From Patescibacteria group bacterium (lineage in GTDB: Bacteria > Patescibacteriota > Microgenomatia > Levybacterales > UBA12049): 64,000 nucleotides of DNA. The DNA lies in the NCBI GenBank assembly GCA_026004395.1, contig BPJB01000001.1, forward strand, positions 327,343 through 391,342, in the 5' to 3' direction. The notes beneath the pieces are model-generated. The model had not been told where the DNA came from and searched no databases. It worked only from the letters and a program-made list of their open reading frames with translations. Below are positions 33,063 to 64,000 of the stretch, piece by piece (within the stretch, counting starts at the first letter, position 1; each line of letters begins with the position of its first letter). The translations under genes were made by a program, and so were the position numbers.

Positions 33063-34688
33063 ATGCAATCTTGCTTTGGACTTCACAAGAAAACTGTTAA
33101 ATTATCTTTTCCAATTATTCTTATTTTTTTCTCACTGATTCTTCTTTTACCATTCTACTCAGGAAGCTTTTATCTAAATCATGACGCAGAGGTGCATTTA
33201 GTTAGATCAGTTGAATACATGAGAGCATTTCTTGATGGACAGCTCCCACCCCGCTGGGCTCCCAATCTTAACTTCGGTTTTGGGTCTCCAGTATTTATTA
33301 TATTTTACCCCTTAGCTGGATACCTAATCGCTTTATTACATTTGTTAGGGTTGTCACTTGAACATTCATTTCTGATTCTTGCAGGGATGGCATTTATTCT
33401 TGGACCGCTAGGATTTTTTTTATGGTTGAGAGAGAAATATGACGATTTCACAGCATTTCTTGCAGCTCTTTTTTATAGTGTTATTCCTTATAGATTTTTA
33501 ACGCTTTATGTGAGAGGGTCAATTGGAGAGCTTATTGCATTAAGCTTGATACCTTTTATTTTTTATTGTCTTGAATCAAGGAGATCAAAAATACTTGTTG
33601 GTGGAATTCTTTATGGATTGCTTGTTCTTTCTCACAATGGATTGAGTCTTATTTTTACTCCGATTTTTATTCTTTATTCTCTTTTTATAGCGAAAAAACA
33701 TAAAGAAATACTCTTGATGCTTGTTATTGGTTTGGGTTTGTCTTCATATTTTTGGATACCTGCACTTATTGAATCAAAATATACAAGTTTTCTTTTATAT
33801 TACAAAAATATGTATCGTGATAATTTTATATCTTTTCTATCGCTTATCTATTCTCCTTGGGGATTTGAGACGCGTATTAATGAACAAGGAGGACTTTCAG
33901 CGCAAATTGGTGTCCCCGGAATTGTTATATTAATAAGCGTGACAGTAATGATGTTTTTTAGAAGAGATAAAAAACAGACTTCATTTTTTCTTTTTTGGCT
34001 GGCAATTTTCCTAATTGGAATTTTTCTTTCCACTGCTTTGTCTTCTTCGCTTTGGGAGAAATTTGATTTCTTAAAAAAGTTTCAGTTTCCATGGAGATTT
34101 TTAGTTATTTCAAGTTTTGCAACTTCTGCGATTAGTCCAATTCTCTTTTCTAATACAAGTAAGCGTATAGCCTTAGTAATAATAGCGTTATGTATTGTGT
34201 ATTCTTTGCCTTTTATAAAAGTACAAAAATATATTACTAGAGGAGATAATTATTACTATTCTTATCAAGGCAGCAGTACTCATCGAGCAGAGGCAACTCC
34301 AATTTGGTCACCAGGAGATCCAAGCAGAAAAGCTTTGTCTCGATTGGAAATAATAGGAGGTCAAGGGATACTGAAAAATGTACACTTACAATCAACAAAA
34401 CATAGCTTCATAGTACTTTCTAGGACAGGAGTAGCAATTCTTGATAACACATTGTATTTTCCAGGATGGACACTACGAATTGATGGTCAGAAAACACCTC
34501 TAGAATTTCAAGATCCGAATCATCAAGGATTGATTACTTTTCATGTGCCTGCAGGTGAGCATACTGTAGAGGTGGCTTTTGAAAACACAAAAGTTCGTTT
34601 GGTGGGGAATATTATCTCTTTTGTTTCCATTCTCGCGGTTGTGGGATATGTATTTGCTTTAAAACTTAAAAATTTTAATATGAGATAA
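33063..34688 (+). CDS. Polytopic membrane protein, paralog family A (GT-C-like architecture; uncharacterised)
   Basis: Shares two modules with ORFs 41574, 43210 and 48607. N-terminal loop: HD..VHL.R...DGQLPPRW......GFGSP.F.FY.PL. C-terminal domain: YFPGW...DG.KTP.EFQDP....I...VP.GEH.V...FENT.VR. Confidence 0.6.
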   Translation: MQSCFGLHKKTVKLSFPIILIFFSLILLLPFYSGSFYLNHDAEVHLVRSVEYMRAFLDGQLPPRWAPNLNFGFGSPVFIIFYPLAGYLIALLHLLGLSLEHSFLILAGMAFILGPLGFFLWLREKYDDFTAFLAALFYSVIPYRFLTLYVRGSIGELIALSLIPFIFYCLESRRSKILVGGILYGLLVLSHNGLSLIFTPIFILYSLFIAKKHKEILLMLVIGLGLSSYFWIPALIESKYTSFLLYYKNMYRDNFISFLSLIYSPWGFETRINEQGGLSAQIGVPGIVILISVTVMMFFRRDKKQTSFFLFWLAIFLIGIFLSTALSSSLWEKFDFLKKFQFPWRFLVISSFATSAISPILFSNTSKRIALVIIALCIVYSLPFIKVQKYITRGDNYYYSYQGSSTHRAEATPIWSPGDPSRKALSRLEIIGGQGILKNVHLQSTKHSFIVLSRTGVAILDNTLYFPGWTLRIDGQKTPLEFQDPNHQGLITFHVPAGEHTVEVAFENTKVRLVGNIISFVSILAVVGYVFALKLKNFNMR

Positions 34689-36426
34689 TGAATTTTTCGC
34701 AAAATGTCTTTATATTAAGTTTTTCAACAAAAAGATGTGTTAAAGTAACGTCTGATATGTAATTTTTTGTTGGCATCTTATCACAAAGTACATCGTTATA
34801 AATTGCAAATGCTCCACCACTATCTTTAAGATGTGCAATAGTACGCTGAGATTTGTCTATTTTGACATCGCAAAGTGATTCGTAAATTACAGTGGCATCT
34901 TTTAACGTTTTAGGACTAGAGCATTGGACAAATGTGATATTGGGAATTTCATATATTCTTTTTTGGATTAGATTATTTATTTGGGGGATATTTTTTTTGG
35001 TGTAGATTCCTGAATAGAACAAGTATTCTCTAAAAAGTAATAAAGGATTGCTTGCATGGACTACGATTTGTTGATTTTGCGATGATGCAAGACTTACATA
35101 TCGTGCAAATACTCTATTGGGGAAGATCAAAATATTATCATTTAGTGGAAATTGGTAAAAATAAATGACTAGAAAATTTAAAAATAACAGGGAATAGATG
35201 CAAAAGATACCGATTGTAACAATTGAAGAATACCATTTGTTTTGCAAAGAGTTGATAAGAGTATATAAGCCGTATGCAATTATTATTAATAAAAGTGGAA
35301 TAAAGAGTGCTAAATGAGGAGTGAAGTTGCCATCGCCTTTGGGATTATGAAATACTTGAGGAAATGTTGATATAACAATAAGCGCTAGGAAAAATAACGA
35401 ACGTTTTTTATTACTTTGGAAAAAACTTACTATGCCAATCAGGAGAAAAAAAGCATCAAGATAATAGAATAATCCATGTCTTCCCAATGAAAAAAAGTAG
35501 TCGCCTGTTCCAAAAAGATATGTAGGAGAGGTTAAGTTGAAAATATTTGCAATTAGAGTTTGGAGATATAGCGTGTATTTATTTTCAAAAAACTTAATTA
35601 ACGGTGATGAGAGAGAAGATTGTCGTATATTATTAACTTCTTCAGCAAGATGCGTATGGTTGGGAAGAAAAATGTCTCCCATTCTTGATGCTTCAGGCTG
35701 GGCATTGAGTTGGTAAATAAATATGCCAACAATCATTATGGCTACTCCAAGAATAGCAATATAATAAGTTTTATAGCGTTTTTTGTGTATAACAAAAAAA
35801 GAGTAAACGGCACAGAGAATTATAAAAGGAAGAAATATCAGTTTCGTCCCAATATAAGAATAGAAAGCAAGGAGCATCGCAGGGATTGCAAGAAGAAGAT
35901 AGGGTCCTTTAGCTTTTAAGAGTATATACAGCGTTAAAATGTAGAAGAACGTCGCTGGCACGACTTCGTATGCAGTCCTTCCACTAAAAATAAACCAGGG
36001 ATTAATAGAACTTAACGCTGCAGCGATAATCCCAAATTTTTTATCTACAAGTTCTTTTCCGAGAAAATACATTAAGATCACAATTCCTACACTTAGGATA
36101 GCGTTGGGCAGCGCAGCTGTTGCAAGAGATAGTCCCAATGGCCCAACGCTAAGAAGAGTTAGTAAGTAAGGAAGTTCTGCTTGCATGCCTGCCCACTGAG
36201 GATAATGAAAAAGAAAAATATCCAAAAGTGTTGTATTACCACTAATATCTTTTCCTGTTTCATAAAAAGATTTTGCATCCAGAAGATAGTGCAGTTGGTC
36301 AAAACTGGTAGCGCTTGGTACATTGTTCAGCAGAAAGAATCTCGTAAAAACACTAATAAGAATAATTGCAAGAAAAAAACTATTCCTTTTTAGCAAGAGA
36401 TAAATATACACAACAATATTATACAT
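34675..36426 (-). CDS. GT-C-type (PMT/ArnT-like, GT39/83) polytopic membrane glycosyltransferase
   Basis: 583 aa with more than 12 TM helices. The extracytoplasmic first loop and overall topology resemble PMT_2-family proteins. Confidence 0.55.
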   Translation of the reverse strand: MYNIVVYIYLLLKRNSFFLAIILISVFTRFFLLNNVPSATSFDQLHYLLDAKSFYETGKDISGNTTLLDIFLFHYPQWAGMQAELPYLLTLLSVGPLGLSLATAALPNAILSVGIVILMYFLGKELVDKKFGIIAAALSSINPWFIFSGRTAYEVVPATFFYILTLYILLKAKGPYLLLAIPAMLLAFYSYIGTKLIFLPFIILCAVYSFFVIHKKRYKTYYIAILGVAIMIVGIFIYQLNAQPEASRMGDIFLPNHTHLAEEVNNIRQSSLSSPLIKFFENKYTLYLQTLIANIFNLTSPTYLFGTGDYFFSLGRHGLFYYLDAFFLLIGIVSFFQSNKKRSLFFLALIVISTFPQVFHNPKGDGNFTPHLALFIPLLLIIIAYGLYTLINSLQNKWYSSIVTIGIFCIYSLLFLNFLVIYFYQFPLNDNILIFPNRVFARYVSLASSQNQQIVVHASNPLLLFREYLFYSGIYTKKNIPQINNLIQKRIYEIPNITFVQCSSPKTLKDATVIYESLCDVKIDKSQRTIAHLKDSGGAFAIYNDVLCDKMPTKNYISDVTLTHLFVEKLNIKTFCEKFIISY

Positions 36427-36573
36427 GCAATAAACTTATTTTTAATTCCAATATTCGAAATTGAAAATAATAATATCTTAGCAGTATGAAGCGATATGAA
36501 ATTTAGTTGGAACATTTTGATATATATAGTAGTTTGTTTACATTTATGTAGGCAATAAATTGAAGTGGAAATG

Positions 36574-36646
36574 TGACCCCACGGGAATTCGAATCCCGGT
36601 TTTCAGGATGAGAACCTGATGTCCTAGACCACTAGACGATGGGGCC
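36574..36646 (-). tRNA. tRNA-Glu (anticodon CTC)
   Basis: Minus-strand sequence GGCCCCATCGTCTAGTGGTCTAGGACATCAGGTTCTCATCCTGAAAACCGGGATTCGAATTCCCGTGGGGTCA folds as a cloverleaf. 7-bp acceptor stem (one G-U pair), anticodon loop TTCTCAT, T-loop TTCGAAT. No encoded CCA. Confidence 0.85.
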
Positions 36647-36796
36647 AACAAAAAATATTGATCCAGTTTAAAAGTTACAAACTTGTAGATATTTTAGCGT
36701 AAGTATGCTTAATAAGCAAACAAATAGCAAATAGCAACTTATTGAAAAATTTTCAGTAACTATTCATGTTTGCTCATCTGGTGTATAATTTGAGTT

Positions 36797-37555
36797 GTGA
36801 ATAGTATTTTCCTTTCGGTAATAATCCCCTGTTACAACGAGATGGCTAATTTACAAAAAGGAGTCCTCGATAAAGTCAGTCATTATCTTTTAAAGCAAAA
36901 ATATTCATCAGAAGTAATCATCGTAGATGATGGATCAACAGATGGAAGTATTCAGTTTATTGAAAAATTTGTCAAAGAGAACGCAAATTTCAAACTTATC
37001 AAGAATAGACATACAGGTAAAGCAGGAGCAGTTTCAACAGGAATGTTGAATGGCAAGGGTGAATATCTACTTTTTACTGATATGGATCAAGCCACCCCAA
37101 TAGAGGAAGTTGAAAAGTTGATTCCTTATTTTAGAGAAGGTTATGATATAGTGATTGGATCGAGAAAATCTAAACGTGAGGGTGCACCCTGGACACGTAT
37201 ATTAATGGCTCGTGGAATGATGTTTTTGCGAACACTGGTTGTTGGTCTTCATGGTATTGATGATACACAATGTGGTTTTAAGATGTTTAGGAATGATGTG
37301 TCAAAAAAACTCTTTGGCACACTGCGTAAACTTCATAATGGATTTAAAGAGGTTACAGGGTCTAGTGTTACAGCGGGATTTGATGTCGAACTTTTGTATC
37401 TAGGTCAAAAAATGGGATACAAAATAAAAGAAGTTCCTGTCAGCTGGCTTTATGTTGAGACTAGAAGAGTTAATCCTCTTAAAGATTCGTTTCAAGGATT
37501 TCTAGATCTTTTGATAATTAAACAAAACGCAATCAAAGGCAAATATAATATATGA
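36797..37555 (+). CDS. GT2 polyprenyl-phosphate sugar synthase (GtrB/Dpm1/ArnC-like)
   Basis: LSVIIPCYNEMANL...VIIVDDGSTDGS...GKAGAVSTGM...LLFTDMDQATP are signature motifs of the Dpm1/GtrB/ArnC clade. Overlaps the next gene (ATGA). Confidence 0.8.
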   Translation: MNSIFLSVIIPCYNEMANLQKGVLDKVSHYLLKQKYSSEVIIVDDGSTDGSIQFIEKFVKENANFKLIKNRHTGKAGAVSTGMLNGKGEYLLFTDMDQATPIEEVEKLIPYFREGYDIVIGSRKSKREGAPWTRILMARGMMFLRTLVVGLHGIDDTQCGFKMFRNDVSKKLFGTLRKLHNGFKEVTGSSVTAGFDVELLYLGQKMGYKIKEVPVSWLYVETRRVNPLKDSFQGFLDLLIIKQNAIKGKYNI

Positions 37556-38763
37556 ATTATAGATCTCAGACTGAGAAAAAAATTGTTCCAACAAAGCTTT
37601 TTTTTGTGCTCTATCTACTTTTAACTTTTTTACTCTTTTTGTACTCCTTTACCCAAGTTGATCTTGGACTAACATTGACTAGAACATCCGCTTTGACAGC
37701 TGTCCAGCATGCATTTCAATATATTGGTTATTTCAATAGACCGCTTTCCACAAGTCTTTATCTTGCAATCATTTTTTTTCTTTTTGGACTTTATATTTGG
37801 TCAATAAAATTAGTTATTAAAAAACAAATTACCAAAAAAATGGTTTGGTTGATTATCTTTTGCGTATCTCTTATATTAGTTTTTTCCTATAATGCTTTTT
37901 CACATGATATTTTTAACTATATTTTTGATGCAAGAATAGTTACTTATTACAGGGAAAATCCTTATTTTAAGAAAGCATTGGATTATCCCAATGATCCCAT
38001 GCTTGCTTTTATGCACTGGACACATAGGACATATCCTTATGGACCAATATGGCTTCTTCTAACTATTCCTCTATCATTTTTAGGATTTTCATTTTTTATC
38101 CCGACATTTCTTCTTTTTAAGATTATGAGCGGACTATCTTATCTTGGATCAGCGTACTTGATCTCCAAAATCACCAGGTACATCAATGAAAAATATGAAT
38201 TATTAAGTCTAACATTCTTTGCTCTTAATCCTCTTGTCCTGATTGAATCGCTTGTTTCAGGACATAATGACATAGTGATGATGTTTTTATTACTTGTCAG
38301 CATTTTATTTTTGGTTAATCAAAGATTTATTTGGTCATTTTTATTTCTTTTTCTGTCAATAGGTATAAAATATGCGACGGGATTCTTATTGCCTATCTAT
38401 CTTGCCATTTGGTTTTTTAAGAAAAAAGAAAGTCGAATAGTTTGGCAAAATATTTTTCTAATCTTTGTTATTGCTATGCTCTTCGCGCTTGTAGCAGCAA
38501 TATTGAGAACGCAGTTTCAACCATGGTATCTTTTATTTGTTATACCACTTGCATCCCTTGTTACACAAAAGAAATATATTCTTGTCCCAACAATCTTTAT
38601 TTCTTTTGGCGCATTATTAAATTACGCTCCATACTTATACTGGGGCAATTGGAATGATCCTGTACCAAAAATAATTTTTTTTATTAATCTATTGGCAGCA
38701 ATGCTAGCGTCTATTTCAATTTGTTGGCTTCTTGTAAGAAAGAAATTTAATTTTTCTTTGTAG
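37552..38763 (+). CDS. Polytopic membrane protein, putative GT-C-like glycosyltransferase (uncharacterised family)
   Basis: 403 aa with about 11 TM helices. A conserved acidic loop motif HDIFNYIFDARIV lies after TM3. Translationally coupled to the upstream GtrB-like GT2. Confidence 0.45.
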   Translation: MNYRSQTEKKIVPTKLFFVLYLLLTFLLFLYSFTQVDLGLTLTRTSALTAVQHAFQYIGYFNRPLSTSLYLAIIFFLFGLYIWSIKLVIKKQITKKMVWLIIFCVSLILVFSYNAFSHDIFNYIFDARIVTYYRENPYFKKALDYPNDPMLAFMHWTHRTYPYGPIWLLLTIPLSFLGFSFFIPTFLLFKIMSGLSYLGSAYLISKITRYINEKYELLSLTFFALNPLVLIESLVSGHNDIVMMFLLLVSILFLVNQRFIWSFLFLFLSIGIKYATGFLLPIYLAIWFFKKKESRIVWQNIFLIFVIAMLFALVAAILRTQFQPWYLLFVIPLASLVTQKKYILVPTIFISFGALLNYAPYLYWGNWNDPVPKIIFFINLLAAMLASISICWLLVRKKFNFSL

Positions 38764-40024
38764 AATCTTCTGTCCAAATGACATACAAATATGATTTAAT
38801 ATCTCCTTCGTGAAAAAGGATAGGATTACCACTGCGGACTCTTTCTGCTGCCTCTTGTTTTTGTTTATCTAATCCTCCGCCTGTTGTTTTGATCCAAAAT
38901 TCTTTTGTATTGTAGTAAGCATAGAATATCCAAAGAAAAACAAGAGGCAACAAAAGGTAAGGAAATTTCTTAAGTAATTTTTGTTGCAGATAAATAAGAA
39001 CAAAGATTACTAGTGGTGCTTGTAGGAGAAAATAATAATCAGAGATAGGACCTGCATAGATAGTGAAAAAAATAACTGGAATCAAAAACCACGGTAACAT
39101 AAGAAGCCCGATAAGTTTTTTAGTTTTATCTTTTTCAAATAAAAGAACAAAGCCAAAAAGAAATGGTATTACATATTGCAAAATTTTCCCCAGAGAAAAG
39201 AATATAATCAGCTTAAACTGCACAAAAGCATCTGTAAGTCTTAGCAGGAAAAAACGTAAATGAAATCCGTGCATATAATGTTTGATAAAGTCTGAGTATT
39301 TATAAAACTCTCCGTGTGAACTTTTGAGATCAAAGATTAGGGTAGGTATGAGGAAAAACGCAGCAATAGCAAAGCTTCCACATAAGAGGAGAAAATTTTT
39401 TATATTTTTTCCGAAAGGAAAAAGAGATAAGAGTATAATTGGAGGAAGAAATACGGCAGTGAAATGAAGATGAAAAAAAAGTCCTGTTAGAATTCCAAGA
39501 AGAATATACCAGTACTTTCCACCGCCTGTTCTAATACGAAAAAGAGTATAGAATAGCAAAATTGATGTAGCAGGCACCAGTGAAACATTCCAGGGAATCT
39601 GATTTTGTTTAATAATATAATTGCTTGTGCCATAGAGAAAGACTGCAAAGATAGCTGCTTTTTCTGAAAAAAGTTTTTTAGCTACTAGATAGAGAGTAAC
39701 AAATGTAATTATATTAACAACAATCGTAAAGTATATAGAAGCAACAGGATCCAGTTTTGTAAGCGCAAAAAAAGGTGCTAGAAGGTAAAAATACAATGGT
39801 CCAAGATGCATATTACCGATACCTGTTTTGGGTCCATCAAGTACGAGCATCCCTTTGAGAATGTCGCGTACTTTCCATGCGTCTCGAGCCTGATCCCATC
39901 CAAATGCTTTATCAGGATAGGATTCAATACCATAAAATCTAAGATACAGTCCCACTGTTAGGATAAATAAAAAAGCAAAAAAATATTTATGTGGAGAAAT
40001 TAGTTTAGAATAAAATTCACTCAT
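38747..40024 (-). CDS. GT-C-type (ArnT/PMT-like) polytopic membrane glycosyltransferase
   Basis: 425 aa with many TM helices. First loop contains WDQARD. Topology resembles the ArnT/PMT_2 family. Confidence 0.5.
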   Translation of the reverse strand: MSEFYSKLISPHKYFFAFLFILTVGLYLRFYGIESYPDKAFGWDQARDAWKVRDILKGMLVLDGPKTGIGNMHLGPLYFYLLAPFFALTKLDPVASIYFTIVVNIITFVTLYLVAKKLFSEKAAIFAVFLYGTSNYIIKQNQIPWNVSLVPATSILLFYTLFRIRTGGGKYWYILLGILTGLFFHLHFTAVFLPPIILLSLFPFGKNIKNFLLLCGSFAIAAFFLIPTLIFDLKSSHGEFYKYSDFIKHYMHGFHLRFFLLRLTDAFVQFKLIIFFSLGKILQYVIPFLFGFVLLFEKDKTKKLIGLLMLPWFLIPVIFFTIYAGPISDYYFLLQAPLVIFVLIYLQQKLLKKFPYLLLPLVFLWIFYAYYNTKEFWIKTTGGGLDKQKQEAAERVRSGNPILFHEGDIKSYLYVIWTEDSTKKN

Positions 40025-40055
40025 TAATGTGAGAATCTAGTATAATCTATAGTAT

Positions 40056-41577
40056 ATGCCAATACTTAAGAAAAGAAAAGTTGAGTTGTTTTTGGTAGTT
40101 TTCCTTTTTGCTCTTTACACTTTTTCACGACTTGGGGCTTTAACAAATATACCAATCTTTACTGATGAGGCAATTTATCTGAGATGGGCGCAGATCGCAG
40201 AATCTGATGCCAATTGGCGATTTATTTCACTTACCGATGGCAAACAGCCGCTTTTTATTTGGTTGACAATGCTAGCGATGAAAATTATTCCTGATCCCTT
40301 GATAGCGGGTAGAATGATCTCTGTATTGTCTGGACTTCTAACAGCTATTGGCTTATTTTTTCTTTCCCGAGAAATATTTCAAGAAAAATGGATAGGAATT
40401 ATTGCCGCAGGATTGTATGTTATTTATCCTTTTGCTCTTATTTATGATAGATTAGCTCTTTATGATTCTCTTGTTGGAACATTTGCAGTCTGGAGTCTTT
40501 ATGGTACAGTCTGTTTGGTGAGAGCTCTTCGTTTGGATGTTGCACTTTTGTTAGGTCTTGCTATAGGAGGTGCGGTATTGAATAAAACAAGCGGTTTTTT
40601 TCAATCTCTATCTTCTCCCTTTTGCATTACTTATTTTTGACTGGAAAAAGAAAAATCTAAGAGGTAGATTGATTCGTTTTATTCTCCTTTGTGGGGTAGT
40701 AGCATTAATGAGCTACGGAATGTATTCTATTTTACGTTTATCACCGTTTTTCTATATTATCGAGGAAAAGAATGCTGTGTTTGTCTACCCTTTTAGGGAT
40801 TGGATCCAACATCCTTTTGCGTATTTTTGGCAAAACTTAAGGGCACTTGTTGATTGGTTGGTAGCATATATGGGATTACCTTTAATATTATTAGCAGTAG
40901 GGTCTCTGTTTTTGAAAAAGACACTCATAAAAGAAAAGATTCTTTTAATAGTATGGTTTGTGGTGCCATTTATTGCTCTTGCATTGTTCGGAAAGACACT
41001 TTATCCTCGCTATATTTTTTTCATGACTCTTTCTCTTCTTCCACTTATAGCATATTCTATCTACATTCTTTATCGAAGACTAAAAGAAAAACCCTACCTT
41101 AGATTATTTTTTATTGTTTTAGCAATTTTTTATTCTTTTGTTTCGTCAATACTCATTCTTGCGGATTTCAAAAATGCGCCTATACCATCAGCAGACAAAT
41201 CACAATATCTTACAGGCTGGCCATCAGGTGTAGGTATTCCTGAGACAATTAATTTTTTTCAACAAAAAGCAAAAAAGGGTGAGATCTTTATTGGCACAGA
41301 AGGTACGTTTGGTCTTTTGCCATTTGCCTATGAATTATACTTTGTCAAGAATAAAAACATAACTGTTAAAGGATACTGGCCAATTGGGCCTGAGATTGAT
41401 CCAGAACTTGTAAAAATGAGTTTATCAAAACCTACCTATATGGTGTTTTATCAAGATTGCGTTCCTTGTGAAGCAAAAGGTATCGCACCTAGTACTTGGC
41501 CGCTTAAGAAAATTATGCAAATTCCAAAAGTTGAGAAAAATACTTATTTAACAGTTTATCAAGTACTACCACAATGA
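40056..41577 (+). pseudogene. GT-C (ArnT/PMT-like, DE-motif) membrane glycosyltransferase interrupted by a frameshift in a T7 homopolymer (pseudogene or sequencing error)
   Basis: ORF 40056-40640 contains TDEAIYLRW (DE motif). ORF 40669-41577 is in a different frame. The joined reading ...LNKTSGFF/FNLYLLPFALLIFDWKKKNLRGRLIRFILL... is continuous across the T-run at 40595-40601. Confidence 0.6.
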
Positions 41578-43217
41578 GAAAAGAATTAAAACAGGTCTTT
41601 CTTTGGATTTTTGTGCTTATTGTTCTTACTTTTCCTTTAATTCTTCCTTATTTCAGAGAAGGATATTTTCCCACACATGATGGCGAGTGGGCAGTTGTTC
41701 GACTTGCTGATATGTATCGAGAGATAAAAGACGGCCAAATTCCACCTAGATTCAGTGGAAATCTCAACTTTGGTTATGGTTATCCACTATTTAATTTTGC
41801 GTATCCTATGCCTTATTATCTGGGATTAGTATTCTTTTTATTACATATTGGCCTCGTCAATAGTATAAAAGTCCTTTTTGCGTTAAGTGTGCCTCTGAGT
41901 GCGATCATGATGTTTTTTGCATCAAGATCATTATGGGGAGGATCACTTGCAGGTCTGACAAGCGCTTTACTGTATGCATATTTACCTTATAGGATGGTTG
42001 ATCTTTATGTTAGAGGATCATTAGGAGAATCATTGGCATCTGTTCTATTCCCCACGATTTTTTATCTAATTACTGTTTTGTCATCTAGGAAATCTGTTTT
42101 TTTGGTTATTGGATTAGCAGCAGCATTTGGAACACTGATTTTAACACACAATATTATGGCTGTATTGTTTTCGATTATCATTAGTGCCTACGTTATATTT
42201 ATTTTCTTTACTTCTAAGAGCAAATATTGGAGGCAAATATTGTTGGGATTATTAGGAGGAATATTCCTTTCAGCATTTTTTTGGCTTCCCGCTCTTGTTG
42301 AAAAAAAGTTTGTTTTGCTTTCACAAATTCCGATTGCCGATCGTGATCTTTACTATGTTAATCCGTGGCAGCTTATTTTTTCTCCTTGGGGCTATGGAAC
42401 ACCTACCGAACAAAATTCATTTACTTATCAGTTAGGATTACCGCACATAATACTTTCGATTATAGGTTTTTTTCATATTTTGATTGATAAAAAAAAGGAT
42501 CAGAAACGTTTTTTAGGAATATTTTTGGCAGGGATGATTCTTGCTGCTATATTTATGCTTTTCCCCTTGTCTTCACCTCTTTGGGAAAATATTCCATTAA
42601 TTTCAGAAATTAATTATCCATGGACATTACTTTTCGTAATAGGATTTTTGATGAGTCTTCTTTCAGGAGTATTAATGAAGTATGGTAAAGTGATGAAAAT
42701 ATTTACAGTACTTTTTATTCTTTCAGCTATTGTTTTGGTATTACCTTTTGCAAAACCATCTGAATATGTTAATAGAGGGGATAGCTATTATTTTACCAAC
42801 GATGCGACTACAACTTCCTCCCGTGAGTTTATGCCTCTGTGGGTCAAACAGATGCCTCTTAATCGAGCAGCAGAAAAAGTACAAATTGTAAAAGGTAAAG
42901 GCAAAATTGAAGATATCAGAGCTACTTCTGATGAGATAACTTTTAGAGCTTCTTTATCTGAAAAAAGCATTATAAGATTGAATACAATTTTTTTCCCTAA
43001 TTGGAGATGGTATGTAGGTAAGAAACAAATTGCATTTAATTACGACAATCCTCAAGGTGTGATGGAAGCGACTTTTGATAAAGGCGAGCATGCAGTAAAA
43101 GTTGTATTTGAGAATACAACTGTGCGTACTTTTGCTAATTGGCTGTCATTGATGACATTTATTATTTTTGCTGTGATACTATCTCTTATATCTTGGAGAA
43201 AAGTATTAGATGAATAA
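41574..43217 (+). CDS. Polytopic membrane protein, paralog family A
   Basis: HDGEWAVVRLADMYREIKDGQIPPRF...GYGYPLFNFAYP. C-terminal FFPNWRWYVGKKQIAFNYDNPQGVMEATFDKGEHAVKVVFENTTVR. Confidence 0.6.
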   Translation: MRKELKQVFLWIFVLIVLTFPLILPYFREGYFPTHDGEWAVVRLADMYREIKDGQIPPRFSGNLNFGYGYPLFNFAYPMPYYLGLVFFLLHIGLVNSIKVLFALSVPLSAIMMFFASRSLWGGSLAGLTSALLYAYLPYRMVDLYVRGSLGESLASVLFPTIFYLITVLSSRKSVFLVIGLAAAFGTLILTHNIMAVLFSIIISAYVIFIFFTSKSKYWRQILLGLLGGIFLSAFFWLPALVEKKFVLLSQIPIADRDLYYVNPWQLIFSPWGYGTPTEQNSFTYQLGLPHIILSIIGFFHILIDKKKDQKRFLGIFLAGMILAAIFMLFPLSSPLWENIPLISEINYPWTLLFVIGFLMSLLSGVLMKYGKVMKIFTVLFILSAIVLVLPFAKPSEYVNRGDSYYFTNDATTTSSREFMPLWVKQMPLNRAAEKVQIVKGKGKIEDIRATSDEITFRASLSEKSIIRLNTIFFPNWRWYVGKKQIAFNYDNPQGVMEATFDKGEHAVKVVFENTTVRTFANWLSLMTFIIFAVILSLISWRKVLDE

Positions 43218-45602: not shown

Positions 45603-45604
45603 TT

Positions 45605-47056: not shown

Positions 47057-47057
47057 T

Positions 47058-51065: not shown

Positions 51066-51074
51066 CAAAAGGTT

Positions 51075-52739: not shown

Positions 52740-52745
52740 GATGAA

Positions 52746-54411: not shown

Positions 54412-54651
54412 CTATTTTTTGAGCATTCTAAACCAGTCACTAATTTGATCAACAGTAAGTTTATTCTTGGCAAAGCGCAAAAGGAAAATAATCTCTAAAA
54501 CACCCAAAGTATTAAGAATAAGCATAGCAATAAACCAATATTTTTGTTCTCCTTGTGCTGCTCTCCATAAAGCCAATCCTTTCCAAAGGATAGCCCATAA
54601 GAAGATAAAATAAAATATAAAAGGTGGTATATTGCCAATAGATGGGTTCAT
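54412..54651 (-). CDS. Small two-TM membrane protein (hypothetical)
   Basis: 79 aa. FIFYFIFLWAILWKGLALWRAA...WFIAMLILNTLGVLEIIFLL has two hydrophobic helices. It is antisense-embedded between a GT2 and a GT4 gene. Confidence 0.4.
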   Translation of the reverse strand: MNPSIGNIPPFIFYFIFLWAILWKGLALWRAAQGEQKYWFIAMLILNTLGVLEIIFLLRFAKNKLTVDQISDWFRMLKK

Positions 54652-54706
54652 TTTCTATATCTTAACATACATTTTGATAAATAGCAAAAATTGCTACAAT
54701 AAAAGA

Positions 54707-55780
54707 GTGAAAATTGGAATTTTTTCTCCATATCTTGATACTATGTCTGGAGGTGAGAAATATATGCTGACGCTTGCAGATTGCCTCTCTCCTGAGCATG
54801 AGGTAACGATTTTCTGGGACAAAGATAAAGAAAAAGACATTAGAGAAAAAGCCAAACACAGATTCAATTTCGATTTAGCTAATATAACATTCACATCTTC
54901 GATTTTTAGCAGCAGTATATCTTTTTTTGAGAGATTTTGGGAAAGTAAGAAATATGATCTGATCTTTTTTTTGAGTGATGGTAGTATTCCTTTTCTTGCA
55001 TGTCCGGTTATTCTCCATTTTCAATCTCCTGTTGAGTGGGTAAAAGTATCCTTAAAGACAAGAATAAAGATGTCTTTCATCCATGAAGTAATTTGCAACT
55101 CATTTTTTACCAAGTATTATATTGATCGCAAATTTCATCTACAAAGTAAGGTTGTCTATCCACCTGTAGATTTTTCTGCTGCCAAAAAAAATCTTAAAAA
55201 AGAAAAAATTATTCTTAATGTAGGCCGTTTTGGGATAAACCATGCAGGATCTAGTTTTAAAAAACAAGATATTCTTGCCGAAGCATTTGCTGATCTCATA
55301 GAAAACGGCATAAATAATTGGAAGCTTGTTTTTGTTGTGAGTTTGAGAGATGAAGATAAAAAGAGTTTTAATTCTTTTCAGAAAAGATACAACTTTCTTC
55401 CTATAAAATATGTTATCAATCCTTCCAGTGAAGAACTTTGGGAGTATTATTCTAAAGCAAGTATCTATTGGCATGCGTCAGGATATGGTGAGAATTTGGA
55501 TGAACATCCGGACCGCGCAGAACATTTTGGGATCTCAACAGTTGAAGCTATGGGATCGGGTGCAGTACCTTTAGTGTATAATGCAGGCGGGCAAAAAGAA
55601 ATTGTCACCCACCAACATACAGGATTTTTGTGGAATTCTACCCAAGAGTTAATTGCCTATACCCAAAATCTTATATCAGAACCAACTCAATTAGCAGATC
55701 TTTCTCAGGCAGCAAAACAAGCAGCATATAAATATCAAAAGGAAGAGTTTTGTAAAAATATCAAAAGTATTCTTCCATGA
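54707..55780 (+). CDS. GT4 (GT1-type) glycosyltransferase
   Basis: N-terminus VKIGIFSPYLDTMSGGEKYML. C-terminal motif EHFGISTVEAMGSGAVPLVYNAGGQKEIV...TGFLW. GTG start at 54707 is assumed; the ORF track extends to 54632. Confidence 0.75.
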   Translation: MKIGIFSPYLDTMSGGEKYMLTLADCLSPEHEVTIFWDKDKEKDIREKAKHRFNFDLANITFTSSIFSSSISFFERFWESKKYDLIFFLSDGSIPFLACPVILHFQSPVEWVKVSLKTRIKMSFIHEVICNSFFTKYYIDRKFHLQSKVVYPPVDFSAAKKNLKKEKIILNVGRFGINHAGSSFKKQDILAEAFADLIENGINNWKLVFVVSLRDEDKKSFNSFQKRYNFLPIKYVINPSSEELWEYYSKASIYWHASGYGENLDEHPDRAEHFGISTVEAMGSGAVPLVYNAGGQKEIVTHQHTGFLWNSTQELIAYTQNLISEPTQLADLSQAAKQAAYKYQKEEFCKNIKSILP

Positions 55781-58068
55781 AACAAAAATATCTTGCGCTA
55801 CTCATAGTTTTTATTGTTTCTCTATTCTTTTATCCTTTGTTTTTTCAAGGAAAGCTTCCTGTGCCTGCTGATACTATTGTTGGACTTTACCATCCTTTTA
55901 GAGACCTTTACTCTGGGGAGTATCCTAATGGTATTCCCTTTAAGAATTTTTTAATAACAGATCCTGTTCGACAGCAGATTCCTTGGAGATTTATTAGTTT
56001 GGAGATAATTAAAGAGAAAGAATTGCCACTTTGGAATCCTTACGCATTTTCAGGCTATCCACTGCTTGGTAATTTTCAGTCTGCGGTATTTAATCCTCTA
56101 AATATTTTTATTCTTTTGCTGCCGTTTTGGTTAGGATGGACTATTATTGTTTTGCTTCAGCCAATTCTTGCCGCCTTGTTTATGTTTTATTATCTTGCTT
56201 ATCTTCGGTTGACAAAAATAGCATCTTTTTTAGGAGGAGTGACGTTTGCTTTTAGTGGTTTTATGATTGCCTGGCTTGAGTGGGGGACACTGGGATATGT
56301 GATAGCATTTGTCCCTCTGATTTTATTGTCATTGGAGCAACTTATTAGGCAATGGACAAGAAGATGGGCTGTTGTTTTCACTCTTTCAGCTATGATACAA
56401 CTATTTTCCGGTCACCTGCAGGTGTGGTTTTATACATTTATTTTAATCAATCTCTATCTTCTTTTCCGTTTATATTTTTCTCTAAAAGAGCAACGGGAGA
56501 AAATCACATTTTTGTCTTTTCTAAACGCATATAAGTCCTTTCTTTTGCTTATAATTTTTGTTTTAGCAGCGACATCTATTCAATGGATACCAAGTTTAAT
56601 ATTAATTCTTCAAAGCGGTAGAGATGCAGATCAGGTATTCTGGCAAAATCAAGGCTGGTTTATCCCCTGGCAACATTTGATTCAGTTTGTTGTACCCGAT
56701 TTCTTTGGTAATCCAACAACACTTAACTATTGGGGTGTTTGGAATTATGCAGAGTTTGTAGGATATATTGGTCTTGCTCAATTGATTTTTGCGACTACTG
56801 CGATAATCAATCTTATCAGAAAAAATTATTATGTATCGTTTTTTGCGGGTGTTGTTATATTTTCACTAATTTTTTCTCTTCCTACGCCTCTTGCTGTTAT
56901 TCCATTTACTCTTGATATTCCCTTACTTTCAACATCCCAACCAACAAGACTTCTTTCTTTAATAGACTTATCTTTAGCTATTTTAAGTGCTTTCGGATTT
57001 AATTTGCTAATTGAGAAAAAACAAAAAAAAATTATTACCTCTTTTATATTGACTGGTTTAATTTTGGCATTTCTTTGGTTATTTGTGAATCAATTAATTT
57101 TTAAATTAATAAATATTGATAAAGTAAATCTTTTGGTTGCAAAGAGAAATCTTATTTTCCCAACAGTTATTTTCCTATCGGTGTCTTTTGCGTTTGTTTT
57201 ATTAAATTCAGTAAAAAGATCCTTGATTAGAAATATAGTGATTTTGGGAATTATAATAATTTCTTTGTTTGATTTATTTCGATTCTTTCACAAATTTACT
57301 TCCTTTTCTCCGAAGAATTATCTTTTCCCAACTACCAAAACAATTTCTTTTTTGCAAAATAATCTGCAATATCAGAGATTTATGACTGTAGATGATCGCA
57401 TACTTCCTCCAAATTTTTCAATTTTTTATAAACTGGAAAGTGTTAACGGTTACGATCCGCTATATTTAAGACGATATGCAGAATATATAGCGGCAAGTGA
57501 AAGGGCAAAACCTGATATTTCACCTCCATGGGGATTTAATCGTATCATTACTCCCAAAAGATTTGATTCTCGACTTATTGATATGCTGGGTACAAAATAT
57601 ATTTTGTCTCTTGTGGATCTTAATTCACCCAAAATAAAAAAAATCTTTACAGAAGGAGAGACAAGAGTCTATGAAAATAAAGCAGCGCTACCCAGAGTGA
57701 TACTCGTCAACGATCTTTTTATTGTTCCTACAAAACAAAAGGCTATTGAAAAATTATTTGAGCCATCTTTTAATCCGCAAACCCAAGCAGTAGGTGAATT
57801 TCCTAGTGAGAAACAATCACTAAAAAAACAATATGCTTCAGGAAGTGCAACAATTCTTTATTACTCACCAACAAAAATTATAATAAAGACAGTTCTTAGA
57901 GATGAAGGATTTCTTGTGCTATTTGATCCCTACTATCCAACATGGAGAGTTTTCATTTGTTCTAGTTCGTGTACACAGACTGAGATGATCAGAACAAACT
58001 TTCTTTTTAGAGGGGTTGTTGTTCCGGGTGGTGAGCATACTATAGAATTTAGAAATAATATTTTTTAA
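55777..58068 (+). CDS. Large polytopic membrane protein (about 763 aa), putative GT-C/YfhO-like glycosyltransferase
   Basis: About 14 TM helices in the N-terminal 500 aa. Extracytoplasmic loop motif PADTIVGLYHPFRDLY. C-terminal soluble domain. Overlaps the upstream GT4 stop. Confidence 0.45.
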   Translation: MKQKYLALLIVFIVSLFFYPLFFQGKLPVPADTIVGLYHPFRDLYSGEYPNGIPFKNFLITDPVRQQIPWRFISLEIIKEKELPLWNPYAFSGYPLLGNFQSAVFNPLNIFILLLPFWLGWTIIVLLQPILAALFMFYYLAYLRLTKIASFLGGVTFAFSGFMIAWLEWGTLGYVIAFVPLILLSLEQLIRQWTRRWAVVFTLSAMIQLFSGHLQVWFYTFILINLYLLFRLYFSLKEQREKITFLSFLNAYKSFLLLIIFVLAATSIQWIPSLILILQSGRDADQVFWQNQGWFIPWQHLIQFVVPDFFGNPTTLNYWGVWNYAEFVGYIGLAQLIFATTAIINLIRKNYYVSFFAGVVIFSLIFSLPTPLAVIPFTLDIPLLSTSQPTRLLSLIDLSLAILSAFGFNLLIEKKQKKIITSFILTGLILAFLWLFVNQLIFKLINIDKVNLLVAKRNLIFPTVIFLSVSFAFVLLNSVKRSLIRNIVILGIIIISLFDLFRFFHKFTSFSPKNYLFPTTKTISFLQNNLQYQRFMTVDDRILPPNFSIFYKLESVNGYDPLYLRRYAEYIAASERAKPDISPPWGFNRIITPKRFDSRLIDMLGTKYILSLVDLNSPKIKKIFTEGETRVYENKAALPRVILVNDLFIVPTKQKAIEKLFEPSFNPQTQAVGEFPSEKQSLKKQYASGSATILYYSPTKIIIKTVLRDEGFLVLFDPYYPTWRVFICSSSCTQTEMIRTNFLFRGVVVPGGEHTIEFRNNIF

Positions 58069-58071
58069 TTT

Positions 58072-59745
58072 ATGAAAAAAAACATTATTTTTTTGGCAAT
58101 TATTTTCATCGCCATTATTTTTCGTTTCTCTGCATTAGGCAAAATACCAATATCACTTTATTGGGATGAAGCTGCAGTTGGTTATAATGCCTACAGTATT
58201 TTATTAACAGGCAAAGATGAATATGGTAATTTTTTCCCTCTTCTTTTTCGTTCATTTGAAGATTACAAGATGCCTGCATATGTTTATTTGACAACAATTC
58301 CTATTGGATTTTTTGGTCTTAATGAGTTTTCTGTACGATTTGTATCGGCATTTGCGGGAGTGACTGCGGTTTTATTAACTTACTTTTTAACACGATTACT
58401 CTTTATTCAATTTTCCAGTTCTCAAAAGAATATTTTAAAAGAGAAGAGTAATGCAATTGCGCTTCTTGGATCATTCTTGCTTGCAATTTCACCTTGGCAT
58501 CTTCAGTTTTCACGAACTGGATTTGAGGCAAATGTAGCGTTAACTACATTTCTTGCAGGATTTTATTTTTTCTTTAGATCTTTTTTAAATCAGAAATATT
58601 TTCCTTTTGCTTTTTTCTTTTTTACTCTTAGTTTCTATCTTTATAGAAGTATTTTTATTTTTTTACCGGTCGTTTTAATCGGCTTATTAATTATTTTTCG
58701 TAGAGAGCTTTTTTCTTTAGAGCGCAGAGGAAAAACAATTATGACTTTGATAGTGTTTATTATTTGTATAACGCCAATAACTTATGCAGTATTTTTTGGT
58801 CCGGGAAGAGTAAGAGCCGATCAGGTCAGTGTCTTCCGACATTCTCAGGAAGCATTATCAGAAAATTTACAAAAACAACAAGAAGGTAATACTTATATTT
58901 CACGAGTGCTGTATAATCGTCGTATAACTTACGCTAGGATTACAATCCAAAATTATTTATCTCATTTTTCTCCAGCGTTTTTATTTCTTAGCGGTGATGG
59001 TAATGGAAGGCATACTGTTAAAAATATGGGAGTGCTTTATAGGTGGGAGATACCATTTCTCCTTTTGGGATTTTTTCTGATATTAAGAGAAAAGAGCAAA
59101 TTAAGACTAATTATTATACTTTGGATATTTGCAGCACCTCTAGCAGCGAGTCTAGCCACACCTTCTCCTCATGCATTGCGTTCATTAAATATGCTTCCTG
59201 TACCACAGATATTAACTGCAACTGGAATTACTTTTGTTTTCTTTAAGCTGCAAAGAAGATACAGGATAGCCTTTTTTTTGCTGATGATTTTAGTAGTGTC
59301 TCTGTTTTTTAATCAATATTGGAAGGAATATAATTATCATAATACTGTCACAGCTAGTGCTGACTGGGCTGATGGCTACAAACAGTTGGTATCTGAAGTA
59401 CAAAAAAGAGAAAAAGATTATGACAAGATAGTTATTTCTGGATATTATTGGCAGCCTTATATTTATTTTCTTTTTTACACAAGATATGATCCTTACTTAT
59501 TTCAACATTCGGGTAAAAAAGAAAGATTTGGCAAGTATGTATTTGGTGGAACTGAATGGGATAAGGACAGGGGAAGAAGCGAATTACATAATGTTGATCT
59601 TGTAAGGTTTGCAGGTTCTAGGAATATTCTTGTGGCTTTATCTCCATCAGAATATCAAGCACATTCTAATGAACTGCAAAAAATCACAGAAATTAAGAAT
59701 GCAAAAAATGATACTATTTTTATTCTTGGATCGCTGAGGAAATAA
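58072..59745 (+). CDS. GT-C glycosyltransferase, PMT/ArnT-like, paralog family B
   Basis: ISLYWDEAAVGYNAYSILLTGKDEYGNFFPLLFRSFEDYKMPAYVYLT. 557 aa. Confidence 0.7.
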   Translation: MKKNIIFLAIIFIAIIFRFSALGKIPISLYWDEAAVGYNAYSILLTGKDEYGNFFPLLFRSFEDYKMPAYVYLTTIPIGFFGLNEFSVRFVSAFAGVTAVLLTYFLTRLLFIQFSSSQKNILKEKSNAIALLGSFLLAISPWHLQFSRTGFEANVALTTFLAGFYFFFRSFLNQKYFPFAFFFFTLSFYLYRSIFIFLPVVLIGLLIIFRRELFSLERRGKTIMTLIVFIICITPITYAVFFGPGRVRADQVSVFRHSQEALSENLQKQQEGNTYISRVLYNRRITYARITIQNYLSHFSPAFLFLSGDGNGRHTVKNMGVLYRWEIPFLLLGFFLILREKSKLRLIIILWIFAAPLAASLATPSPHALRSLNMLPVPQILTATGITFVFFKLQRRYRIAFFLLMILVVSLFFNQYWKEYNYHNTVTASADWADGYKQLVSEVQKREKDYDKIVISGYYWQPYIYFLFYTRYDPYLFQHSGKKERFGKYVFGGTEWDKDRGRSELHNVDLVRFAGSRNILVALSPSEYQAHSNELQKITEIKNAKNDTIFILGSLRK

Positions 59746-59782
59746 TTTATTGGATAATATAATTAATTATACTAAAAAGAGA

Positions 59783-63027: not shown

Positions 63028-63082
63028 TTACATCAAATTGATTTGATCTGTACTATAATATGTATATTCAGTTTCAGTAATC

Positions 63083-64000
63083 ATGAGTCTAGCAAAATTA
63101 CCAAGAAAGATTTTTAGTTGGATTAATAAAAGAGAGAATTTATTTCTTGTTGTTTTCTTTTTTATTATTTTTTCAGTATTATTGATTAATACTTTTCATG
63201 AAGAATATCCAGATGAATTCGATAACATCTTGGGTGGTTGGTATATTACCCATGGTATTCCTATTTATACAGGTTTTTTTACACACCATGGACCTGTTGC
63301 TTACTTCATAGCAGCGTTAATAACATTATTGAGTGGAAATTCATTTGTTCTTTTTCGGGTAATATTCTCTCTTGTAATCTTTGTGTATCTATTATGGTCT
63401 TATTCTTATATCAAATCGAGATTTGGAAAAGAAAGAACATATTTTTATCTTATTTTTATAGCTCTTATTTCTCTTGCAGGTAACTATTATTGGTTTCATA
63501 TGTTACTGGCAGATACATTGTCTGCATACTTTTTTGCTCCTGTGATTACTTTACTTCTTCTAGTCACTATCTCTAAAACACCCTTAATAAAAAAAGATAT
63601 AATTATTATATCTATACTGACTGCATTTTCAGTTTTGAGTTCTCTTACATTTATTTATTTTTCAATAATAGTGTATGCATATGCATTATATTGGTATCTA
63701 CAATCTAATTCATTGAAGATTTTTTCGCGCAAAGTCGGAGTGGTTATTCTAATTTTTGCTGCTCCCTATCTATTGTTTTTAACATATCTTCTTGTGACTT
63801 TTAGTTTGCAGGAGTATATATATCAAGGTTGGATATTTAATCAGCGGTATTATGTCTATAACTACCCCCGCCCAGAAGGATCTCTCTCTATCAATCCAGT
63901 TCGCTTTGCAATTGTTATAGCTCATAATTTCTATAACAGCTATTTTACTCTTTTAGAGCAAGTAAAGACTTTTAATCTTAACTTCCCATTAAATATTACG
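63083..64000 (+). CDS. Polytopic membrane protein, 5' part (continues beyond the window); likely another glycosylation-island membrane enzyme
   Basis: An open frame from the ATG at 63083 to the window end has no stop (MSLAKLPRKIFSWINKRENLFLVVFFF...). The six-frame track missed it because there is no in-window stop. Multiple TM helices. Confidence 0.5.
   Translation, partial: MSLAKLPRKIFSWINKRENLFLVVFFFIIFSVLLINTFHEEYPDEFDNILGGWYITHGIPIYTGFFTHHGPVAYFIAALITLLSGNSFVLFRVIFSLVIFVYLLWSYSYIKSRFGKERTYFYLIFIALISLAGNYYWFHMLLADTLSAYFFAPVITLLLLVTISKTPLIKKDIIIISILTAFSVLSSLTFIYFSIIVYAYALYWYLQSNSLKIFSRKVGVVILIFAAPYLLFLTYLLVTFSLQEYIYQGWIFNQRYYVYNYPRPEGSLSINPVRFAIVIAHNFYNSYFTLLEQVKTFNLNFPLNIT

Follow-up and report, generated by a model that had tools for sequence, protein, structure and literature searches.

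What does a bacterium with a 1.08-Mb genome build with 14 membrane glycosyltransferases encoded almost side by side? The question is raised by a locus of a Patescibacteria group bacterium (Microgenomatia; Levybacterales; NCBI GenBank assembly GCA_026004395.1), from which we analysed 64,000 nucleotides of contig BPJB01000001.1 (positions 327,343 to 391,342, forward strand), a stretch called the window below. The contig, 1,084,101 bp of a metagenome-assembled genome, bears locus tags KatS3mg089_0367 to 0390 in the window, whose proteins include GIW61513-GIW61538. From window position 33,063 to the end at 64,000 lies a cluster encoding glycosyltransferases (GTs) of the membrane-embedded GT-C type, three short GT2 enzymes, a flippase and further GTs. 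The answer that we favour, with moderate confidence, is that the region is a fixed, co-expressed and vertically inherited assembly line for an extracytoplasmic glycan, which uses polyprenyl-phosphate sugars.

We considered open reading frames (ORFs) of at least 100 amino acids (aa) in this region and scanned them with Pfam at its gathering cut-offs. Glycosylation components make up 23 of the 24, and 14 of these are GT-C-like polytopic proteins by Pfam, BLASTP and hydropathy (Table 1; genes are named here by their first coordinate, with (-) marking the reverse strand). The only non-enzyme ORFs in the region encode a 201-aa protein, 47979(-), and a small DUF5652 protein. Coding density is 98%, and the genes stand in long same-strand runs whose neighbors overlap by 1-8 nt or sit 1-9 nt apart. 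No GT-C match was found by Pfam in any of the approximately 30 upstream ORFs tested (encoding MutS, MutL, enolase, RtcB, Lon, CorA and similar proteins); the clustering is therefore extreme and not a matter of chance.

Table 1. Genes of the glycosylation cluster in window coordinates, followed by three proteins encoded beyond the window (TM, transmembrane).
Position	Strand	Product	Match
33063-34688	+	Family A GT-C, 541 aa, ~11 TM, C-terminal beta-sandwich and terminal TM helix	PTPS_related above cut-off
34675-36426	-	Distant family-B-like GT-C, 583 aa	PMT_2 E 1.1e-3 (19.6 bits), below cut-off
36573-36646	-	tRNA-Glu(CUC), housekeeping, between two GT-C genes	Rfam tRNA 59.9 bits; ARAGORN
36797-37555	+	Dpm1/GtrB/ArnC-like GT2 number 1, 252 aa, DMD	Glycos_transf_2 E 8e-29; DxD at residue 95
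37552-38763	+	GT87 / MptA-MptB-like GT-C, 403 aa	Pfam GT87 27.4 bits vs 25 cut-off
38747-40024	-	PMT_2 GT-C, 425 aa	PMT_2 E 2e-10; WDQARD after TM1
40056-41577	+	PMT_2 GT-C, split gene	N-terminal part PMT_2 E 3e-11, PMT E 3.5e-6
41574-43217	+	Family A GT-C, 547 aa	BLASTP E 1e-86 to 33063; PTPS_related below cut-off
43210-44892	+	Family A GT-C, 560 aa	PTPS_related 33.7 bits; BLASTP E 2e-53 to 33063
44889-45602	+	Dpm1/ArnC-like GT2 number 2, 237 aa, DGD	Glycos_transf_2 E 6e-31
45605-47056	+	Wzx-like MOP flippase, 483 aa, ~13 TM	Polysacc_synt_3 E 1e-42, 146.6 bits
47058-47978	+	GT2, 306 aa, DAD motif	Glycos_transf_2 E 1e-16; paralogue of 53620
47979-48584	-	Membrane-anchored conserved protein, 201 aa, N-terminal TM anchor	
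48607-50295	+	Divergent family A GT-C, 562 aa	BLASTP E 4e-44 to 33063
50349-51065	+	Dpm1/AglJ-like GT2 number 3, 238 aa, DAD	Glycos_transf_2 E 5e-38
51075-52739	+	Family B PMT_2/ArnT-like GT-C, 554 aa, ADE motif	PMT_2 32.1 bits
52746-53669	+	GT2, 307 aa	Glycos_transf_2 E 4e-11
53620-54411	+	GT2, 263 aa	Glycos_transf_2 E 2e-20
54412-54654	-	Two-TM DUF5652 protein, ~79 aa	Pfam DUF5652 E 2e-21
54632-55780	+	GT4, 382 aa	Glycos_transf_1 E 1e-19
55777-58068	+	YfhO-like GT-C, 763 aa	Pfam YfhO 29.4 bits vs 28.5 cut-off, borderline
58072-59745	+	Family B GT-C, 557 aa, WDE	PMT_2 31.2 bits
59750-61423	+	Family B GT-C, 557 aa, WDE	PMT 46.7 bits, PMT_2 45.1 bits
61423-63027	+	Family B GT-C, 534 aa, WDE	PMT_2 27.8 bits
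63083-64000	+	N-terminal part of 576-aa polytopic protein	PMT_2 E 1e-3 to 4e-3 (19.8 bits), below cut-off
L001 13394-15421 (~64.8-66.8 kb extended coordinates)	+	675-aa protein, 13 TM	
L087 12512-16974	+	776-aa (15 TM) and 711-aa (11 TM) polytopic proteins	

All-against-all BLASTP of the window proteins defined two paralogue families. Family A has four members (33063, 41574, 43210 and 48607; mutual identity 24-34%, E 1e-26 to 1e-86), of which 48607 additionally gives weak matches to PTPS_related (below the cut-off) and DUF6541. Family B also has four (51075, 58072, 59750 and 61423; 28-36% identical) and a distant member in 34675(-), which matches 59750 at E 1e-24 and has orthologues of 48-49% identity in Levybacteria loci. 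PMT_2 or PMT scores above the gathering threshold in six proteins, the family B members together with 38747 and 40056; 38747(-) is related to 490-aa and 514-aa proteins encoded downstream of the window. For 37552, an orthologue of 92% identity carries precomputed MptA_B_family and GT87 matches, and hhalign relates it to family B at 97% probability. The orthologues of 55777 in two other loci (L003 and L005) have precomputed YfhO matches, and an iterated search merges this protein with family A. The full 576 aa of 63083 were read from an independent assembly described below; hhalign places it at 92.8% with a YfhO-type profile and at 3.8% with family B (63083 removed from that alignment). It is probably a GT-C enzyme, and it is the weakest assignment of the 14.

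The window had earlier been interpreted from its letters and ORF translations, and the ORF coordinates of this sequence-only reading agree with our map. Its description of the content held well: almost every gene from 33 kb onward is a glycosylation component, Pfam recovers the Wzx-like flippase (45605), three other GT2 enzymes (47058, 52746, 53620) and one GT4 (54632), and the estimate of about 14 GT-C-like membrane enzymes comes to 14 by Pfam and BLASTP, with 63083 only weakly so. All four proposed family A proteins are linked by PTPS_related or BLASTP, and the further candidates (34675(-), 37552, 38747(-), 40056, 55777, 63083) match PMT_2, GT87 or YfhO, the first and last of them below threshold. 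The four PMT/ArnT-like proteins of family B are likewise present, though the WDE loop motif ascribed to all of them occurs in three and is replaced by ADE in 51075. The island had been described up to the window end; the cluster continues past it.

The gene at 40056 had been called frameshifted, and comparison with an intact 506-aa orthologue in a 92%-identical relative (L002) agrees. ORFs 40056-40640 and 40669-41577 are one PMT_2 gene, split by a 1-nt insertion beside a T-run at ~40,596-40,603. The insertion could stem from a long-read error at the homopolymer or from slipped-strand phase variation, or the gene could be a pseudogene.

By Pfam and profile-profile comparison, and for family A by structure as well, the membrane ORFs of the window are GT-C enzymes. 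Each of the 14 proteins has 8-13 TM segments by hydropathy. Nearly all carry an acidic residue immediately behind TM1: D41 is invariant in family A (66/66 sequences) and D38, in the family B motif WDE/ADE, over the six sequences of alignment A2, while other members show PAD (55777), FDQ (34675), PDEFD (63083), TDE or WDQARD; no post-TM1 motif was assigned to the GT87-like 37552. The N-termini are basic, from which the loop is expected on the outer side of the membrane, where known GT-C enzymes have it. Sequence-profile search of the PDB with family A returned nothing at E up to 10, and structure prediction was therefore used. An AlphaFold2 (AF2) model of 33063, built from a 66-sequence family A alignment, is a helical bundle (pLDDT 94.3, pTM 0.93). 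Its top 26 Foldseek matches are all GT-C enzymes and transporters appear only at probability <0.12, so that identity as transporters is rejected. Best among the matches are the oligosaccharyltransferases STT3, AglB and PglB (E 5e-5 to 1e-3), and AftA, AftD, AftB, PimE and EmbA are also included. Fold comparison by structure covers family A; the other families are assigned by Pfam and hhalign, which relates family A to family B at 96% probability (E 4e-9), and the family B profile matches ArnT (5EZM) at E 2e-5. No Pfam scan of the window proteins found a MIR domain, and a WWDYG-type motif is absent from the consensus sequences of families A and B. PTPS_related (PF10131) is a member of Pfam clan CL0111 whose function is listed as unknown (PMC7801869).

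Three short GT2 proteins are candidates for making the donors of these enzymes. The best PDB matches of 36797 are GtrB (5EKP, E 6e-16) and the Pyrococcus Dol-P-Man synthase PfDPMS (5MLZ, E 6e-14), those of 44889 are ArnC (9BHC, E 6e-19, residues 6-211) and PfDPMS (E 8e-18), and 50349 matches PfDPMS at E 3e-16 over residues 1-234; the latter two thus align to solved polyprenyl-phosphate GTs over nearly the whole protein. All three carry a DxD motif at residues 91-97. The equivalog cut-offs of NCBIfam for ArnC, PgfS, AglJ, PpgS and Dol-P-hexose transferase were not reached (40-119 vs 325-529 bits), the match of 50349 to AglJ at E 3e-34 included. To judge from these matches, the three are most similar to polyprenyl-phosphate sugar synthases and are not orthologues of any named enzyme. 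Such synthases come in a subtype free of TM helices (Dpm1, the D2 domain of Ppm1, PpgS) and one with C-terminal TM helices (GtrB, ArnC, PfDPMS). With 237-252 aa and no hydrophobic segment, the three proteins appear to be of the Dpm1/PpgS type rather than the GtrB type; the "GtrB/Dpm1-like" label of the sequence-only reading is corrected in this respect, and its view of them as polyprenyl-phosphate-sugar synthases agrees with their best solved relatives. The genes of all three adjoin GT-C genes: 36797 shares 4 nt with the GT87/MptA-B-like 37552, 44889 overlaps family A gene 43210 and stands before the flippase gene 45605, and 50349 lies 9 nt before family B gene 51075.

The array is old. In the 92%-identical relative the boundary (Lon, a 185-aa protein, cluster) and the gene order over the region compared are the same, with the GT-Cs 85-95% identical and Lon 99%. 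A locus of Candidatus Levybacteria (GCA_016214555.1; L003) has the same modules, rearranged; two more contigs, one Levybacteria-like and one Shapirobacteria-like, are GT-C-packed too, and Gottesmanbacteria-type contigs have similar content. The paralogues of the window are 24-36% identical to one another, and their counterparts in L003 and a second locus, L008, are closer (35-53% for GT-Cs, 62-76% for GT2 enzymes and Wzx), so the duplications must be ancient and the copies individually retained; 37552, 38747 and 40056/40669 have no clear counterpart in these two 21-kb loci. The family A alignment found 329 relatives in species-representative genomes, those named including Candidatus Levybacteria, Shapirobacteria, Gottesmanbacteria and Woesebacteria (all Microgenomatia). 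Around family A homologues in 52 loci (fetched loci >15 kb from other species-level genomes, mostly Microgenomatia) we counted a median of 8.5 GT-C-like ORFs per ~21 kb and a maximum of 11. A GT-C-dense locus is no peculiarity of this genome; it is conserved in, and characteristic of, Levybacteria and other Microgenomatia. A horizontally acquired island was considered and rejected, because GC (~0.30-0.38 across the window) is even and orthologues are kept across Levybacteria; the cluster is by this evidence vertically inherited despite its embedded tRNA-Glu gene, around which we found neither a GC break nor a mobile-element gene. Many of the contigs L008-L085 that hold Levybacteria-type GT-C clusters, from TPA_asm records of binchicken/SRP co-assemblies, bear the title "uncultured Gammaproteobacteria bacterium". 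This label is in all likelihood erroneous or a placeholder; the gene order of L008 is that of L003.

In this genome the cluster reaches at least 73 kb in window coordinates. An independent short-read Logan assembly (DRR290133; L001) overlaps the final 12.6 kb of the window at 100% identity and continues for 9 kb more, with the complete 63083, the 675-aa protein, a GT2, the 490-aa and 514-aa PMT_2-like proteins, a UDP-sugar epimerase, a 380-aa PMT-like protein and a GT4. Close relatives, whose proteins are 90-96% identical, add a second Wzx, more GT2 and GT4 enzymes, a DegT aminotransferase, a second epimerase, the 776-aa and 711-aa proteins and a final GT2. The whole amounts to ~57 kb in these relatives, ~5% of the 1.08-Mb genome, with at least 18 recognisable GT-C-like members. 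Pfam matches none of the 675-, 776- and 711-aa proteins, and hhalign relates the first to GT-C profiles at no more than 44% probability; they may represent unrecognised GT-C-like or polymerase/ligase-like families. At the other boundary, the 185-aa polytopic membrane protein (32495-33052, +) between Lon and the first GT-C gene was tried as a flippase candidate and rejected, having no Pfam or NCBIfam match and occurring, among 85 loci, only in the 92% relative, where its place is kept.

From these parts we infer donors, sidedness and a division of labour as follows. Cytoplasmic GT2 and GT4 enzymes, with the epimerases and aminotransferase encoded downstream, would build one or more lipid-linked oligosaccharides, and Wzx (with the second Wzx downstream) would export the product. 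On the inner side of the membrane, the three soluble Dpm1/ArnC/GtrB-like GT2 enzymes would each attach one sugar to polyprenyl phosphate. Once flipped, these lipid-linked sugars would serve outside as donors for the 14 GT-C enzymes (at least 18 with the extension). Each paralogue would have its own linkage or acceptor step, and jointly they would extend or branch a complex glycoconjugate of the surface, or transfer it. An analogue would be the mycobacterial network of GT-C enzymes that depend on polyprenyl-phosphate sugars and make lipomannan (LM), lipoarabinomannan (LAM) and arabinogalactan, which fits because the cluster has a GT87/MptA-B member and family A has structural matches to AftA, AftD, AftB, PimE and EmbA. 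We would expect the main acceptor to be a glycopolymer or lipoglycan rather than only proteins; the pairing of an MptA/B-family GT87 with a donor synthase hints at a glycan acceptor, as do the two Wzx, the DegT aminotransferase and the epimerases downstream.

Several observations weigh against this assembly line. In the ~90 kb examined we saw no initiating phosphoglycosyltransferase, no Wzy/WaaL-type polymerase or ligase, no LCP ligase, and no GtrA-type or other flippase for undecaprenyl-phosphate (Und-P) sugars. The putative donor synthases have no membrane anchors, and because no equivalog cut-off was reached it is by similarity only that they are assigned a lipid-phosphate acceptor. Among PMT_2 and YfhO relatives there are also enzymes that act on proteins or teichoic acids, and the fold cannot tell these acceptors apart. 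That the family A beta-sandwich resembles accessory domains found in carbohydrate-active enzymes is a generic similarity.

The most serious rival is protein O-glycosylation with many substrates, in which each PMT/YfhO-like GT-C would serve different secreted or surface proteins (pilins, S-layer proteins, adhesins) and take its sugars from the three polyprenyl-phosphate donors, in the manner of actinobacterial Ppm1/Pmt or Streptococcus mutans Pgf. It is not mutually exclusive with the assembly line, and we consider it rather unlikely. Family B and several singletons do match Pfam PMT/PMT_2, the short GT2 enzymes match NCBIfam PgfS (E 1e-19 to 1e-20, far below its cut-off), and the UDP-sugar epimerase of the extension recalls PgfE of Pgf. 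However, known protein O-mannosylation needs one Pmt and not 14 or more, the family consensus sequences show neither the MIR domain nor the WWDYG-type motif, and two Wzx, many cytoplasmic GTs and the MptA/B-like GT87 point to a polymer or oligosaccharide. The sequence-only reading had proposed looking for glycoprotein or S-layer genes beyond the window; none was found in ~26 kb downstream, nor was an S-layer, pilin or obvious glycoprotein gene seen in or beside the cluster in the ~90 kb.

Less probable still is a variable decoration toolkit, a set of Gtr/YfhO-type side-chain glycosylases acting on one polymer (a teichoic-acid-like or S-layer glycan) and kept as a reservoir of diversity against phages or for host recognition. 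The three modules of donor synthase and GT-C resemble the three-component GtrB/GtrC and CsbB/YfhO systems, divergence between close relatives is somewhat faster for the GT-Cs of the island than for Lon, and the T-run frameshift of 40056/40669 could be phase variation, though a long-read homopolymer error would explain it as well. Against this, the 92% relative has identical gene order and content over the region compared, the ORFs scanned include no GtrA flippase, and the paralogues are ancient, most with their own orthologue in Levybacteria loci, which is the opposite of shuffled cassettes. That the array is an artefact, through assembly duplication of one gene or misassignment of transporters or other non-GT proteins, is extremely improbable: four genes (34675, 41574, 48607, 63083) fall under Pfam cut-offs and the downstream 675-aa protein matches no family, but paralogue identities of only 24-36%, the Logan assembly identical over the 12.6-kb overlap, orthologous clusters in many other assemblies and structure searches that return GT-C enzymes already refute it for the window genes, save for the weak identity of 63083.

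The enzymology that the sequence-only reading had drawn on, with GtrB/Dpm1/ArnC-type donor enzymes serving GT-C transferases, thus stands on Pfam, profiles, the family A structure and the PDB relatives of the GT2 enzymes. The checks by profile and structure that it called for gave GT-C matches and not transporters, the paralogues are maintained and not collapsed or duplicated copies, and its statement that the system had not been characterised is borne out. Its "combinatorial or multi-substrate" system was a guess; paralogues that are old, individually conserved and set in tight operons suit a fixed multi-step line no less well. We tentatively raise a wider possibility, which we hold to be doubtful, that Microgenomatia (Levybacteria and relatives) give ~5% of a ~1-Mb genome to one such GT-C line, which builds a complex, mycobacteria-like extracytoplasmic lipoglycan or heteropolysaccharide coat, or a dense protein-glycan coat, as the main interface with host or environment, that the locus also holds GT-C-like families that current models do not recognise (the 675-, 776- and 711-aa proteins), and that PTPS_related is its core transferase type.

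Patescibacteria, or Candidate Phyla Radiation (CPR), account for a large share of bacterial diversity, have lost most biosynthesis, and have a surface chemistry that is essentially unknown. Because this bacterium devotes ~5% of its genome to one conserved cluster with at least 18 GT-Cs, yet belongs to a group with reduced biosynthesis, an elaborate surface glycoconjugate central to its lifestyle is implied; it could serve in host attachment, protection or phage evasion. Every part comes from a known superfamily, and a polyprenyl-phosphate-sugar synthase feeding a GT-C follows known logic. What appears to be undescribed is a cluster on this scale, with 14 GT-Cs within 31 kb (at least 18 within ~57 kb), and their concentration in operons of a genome of only 1.08 Mb. 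The same holds for the predominance of PTPS_related, a family not yet characterised, and for the fact that such clusters are conserved across Microgenomatia. Our literature search found no description of CPR GT-C expansions, of the KatS3mg metagenome-assembled genome or of Levybacteria glycosylation, and no retrieved paper links CPR with GT39, GT83 or GT87; the only related remark concerned a Microgenomates genome with "29 genes of glycosyl transferases" (PMC7143001). The cluster supplies a defined genetic context for PF10131 and ready pairs of donor synthase and transferase, such as 36797 with 37552 and 50349 with 51075.

The remaining genes of the cluster add detail. The flippase 45605 reaches 111 bits (E 5e-32) with the NCBIfam MOP flippase model, under its cut-off of 273, and has orthologues of 75-76% identity in Levybacteria loci. 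GT2 52746 is weakly similar to an NCBIfam rhamnosyltransferase subfamily (E 7e-15, below cut-off). The true start of GT4 54632 may lie later, since its gene call in the Logan assembly has 345 aa. The 201-aa protein 47979(-) has no Pfam or NCBIfam match, and a single-sequence AF2 model of it was unusable (pLDDT 43); in four Levybacteria loci (L003, L004, L007, L008) its orthologue is likewise flanked by a GT2 and a family A GT-C gene. Its role may be that of a substrate or of an accessory factor. The DUF5652 gene lies between GT2 and GT4 genes on the opposite strand, a position that is conserved both in L001 and in L003, a Levybacteria locus.

Other features of the window lie upstream. About 6 kb before the cluster, beside a D-Ala-D-Ala carboxypeptidase gene, is a GH18 protein (25851-27218, +) with secondary matches to GH85 and the EndoS TIM-barrel (endo-beta-N-acetylglucosaminidase-like); as predicted from these families it could act on chitin, peptidoglycan or glycoconjugates. 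Positions 17700-18950 have low GC (0.29) and no ORF of 100 aa or more, with small stress-protein-like ORFs (a 66-aa KGG-repeat protein, an 84-aa GlsB/YeaQ-like membrane protein and a 95-aa coiled-coil protein); neither repeats nor an Rfam match were found there. At 298-3567 (+), genes for archease and RtcB RNA ligase come after a PGA_cap (CapA-like) gene; with LigT-like and LigD 3'-phosphoesterase genes elsewhere upstream they make an RNA-repair set in a reduced genome.

Several known systems share parts with the cluster. STT3, AglB and PglB are the top structural matches of family A, and Wzx and cytoplasmic GTs that may produce a lipid-linked oligosaccharide are found here too, but family A is without the WWDYG-type motif and has a small beta-sandwich and TM helix in place of the oligosaccharyltransferase periplasmic domain. 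In the ArnC/ArnT modification of lipid A with aminoarabinose, ArnT is matched by the family B profile and ArnC aligns to 44889; no other Arn genes were seen here, however, and ArnC has TM helices that 44889 does not. Patescibacteria are generally described as lacking lipopolysaccharide, in contrast to the setting of that system. Protein O-mannosylation (eukaryotic Pmt1-Pmt2/Pmt4; actinobacterial Ppm1/Pmt) and S. mutans Pgf share with the cluster the PMT/PMT_2 matches, a DE-type motif in the first outer loop and the PgfS-like GT2 similarity; here there are far more paralogues, no MIR domain, and scores far below equivalog cut-offs.

GtrA/GtrB/GtrC (O-antigen glucosylation) and CsbB/GtcA/YfhO (teichoic acid) likewise set the gene of a GT2 Und-P-sugar synthase beside a GT-C gene; furthermore 55777 matches Pfam YfhO, and the short GT2 enzymes count GtrB among their best matches of solved structure. 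The cluster differs in that its synthases lack the two C-terminal TM helices of GtrB and CsbB, that no GtrA/GtcA-type flippase was matched in the ORFs scanned (window and extension), and that at least 14 transferases accompany three synthases rather than one each.

The nearest functional analogue is the network of mycobacteria and corynebacteria that builds LM/LAM and arabinogalactan, in which Ppm1 serves PimE, MptA, MptB and MptC, and decaprenyl-phospho-arabinose serves EmbA-C and AftA-D. The genes of that network are dispersed, whereas here they are packed together within ~50-57 kb of a 1.08-Mb genome; PTPS_related, YfhO and PMT_2 dominate here instead of Emb and Aft, and no genes of the decaprenyl-phospho-arabinose pathway were seen. 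The catalytic domain of the donor synthases Ppm1 and PpgS has no TM helices of its own, as here. Common to both are many divergent GT-C paralogues, which in our proposal would likewise make one outer-face linkage each from polyprenyl-phosphate monosaccharide donors, and the membership of 37552 in the GT87/MptA-B family.

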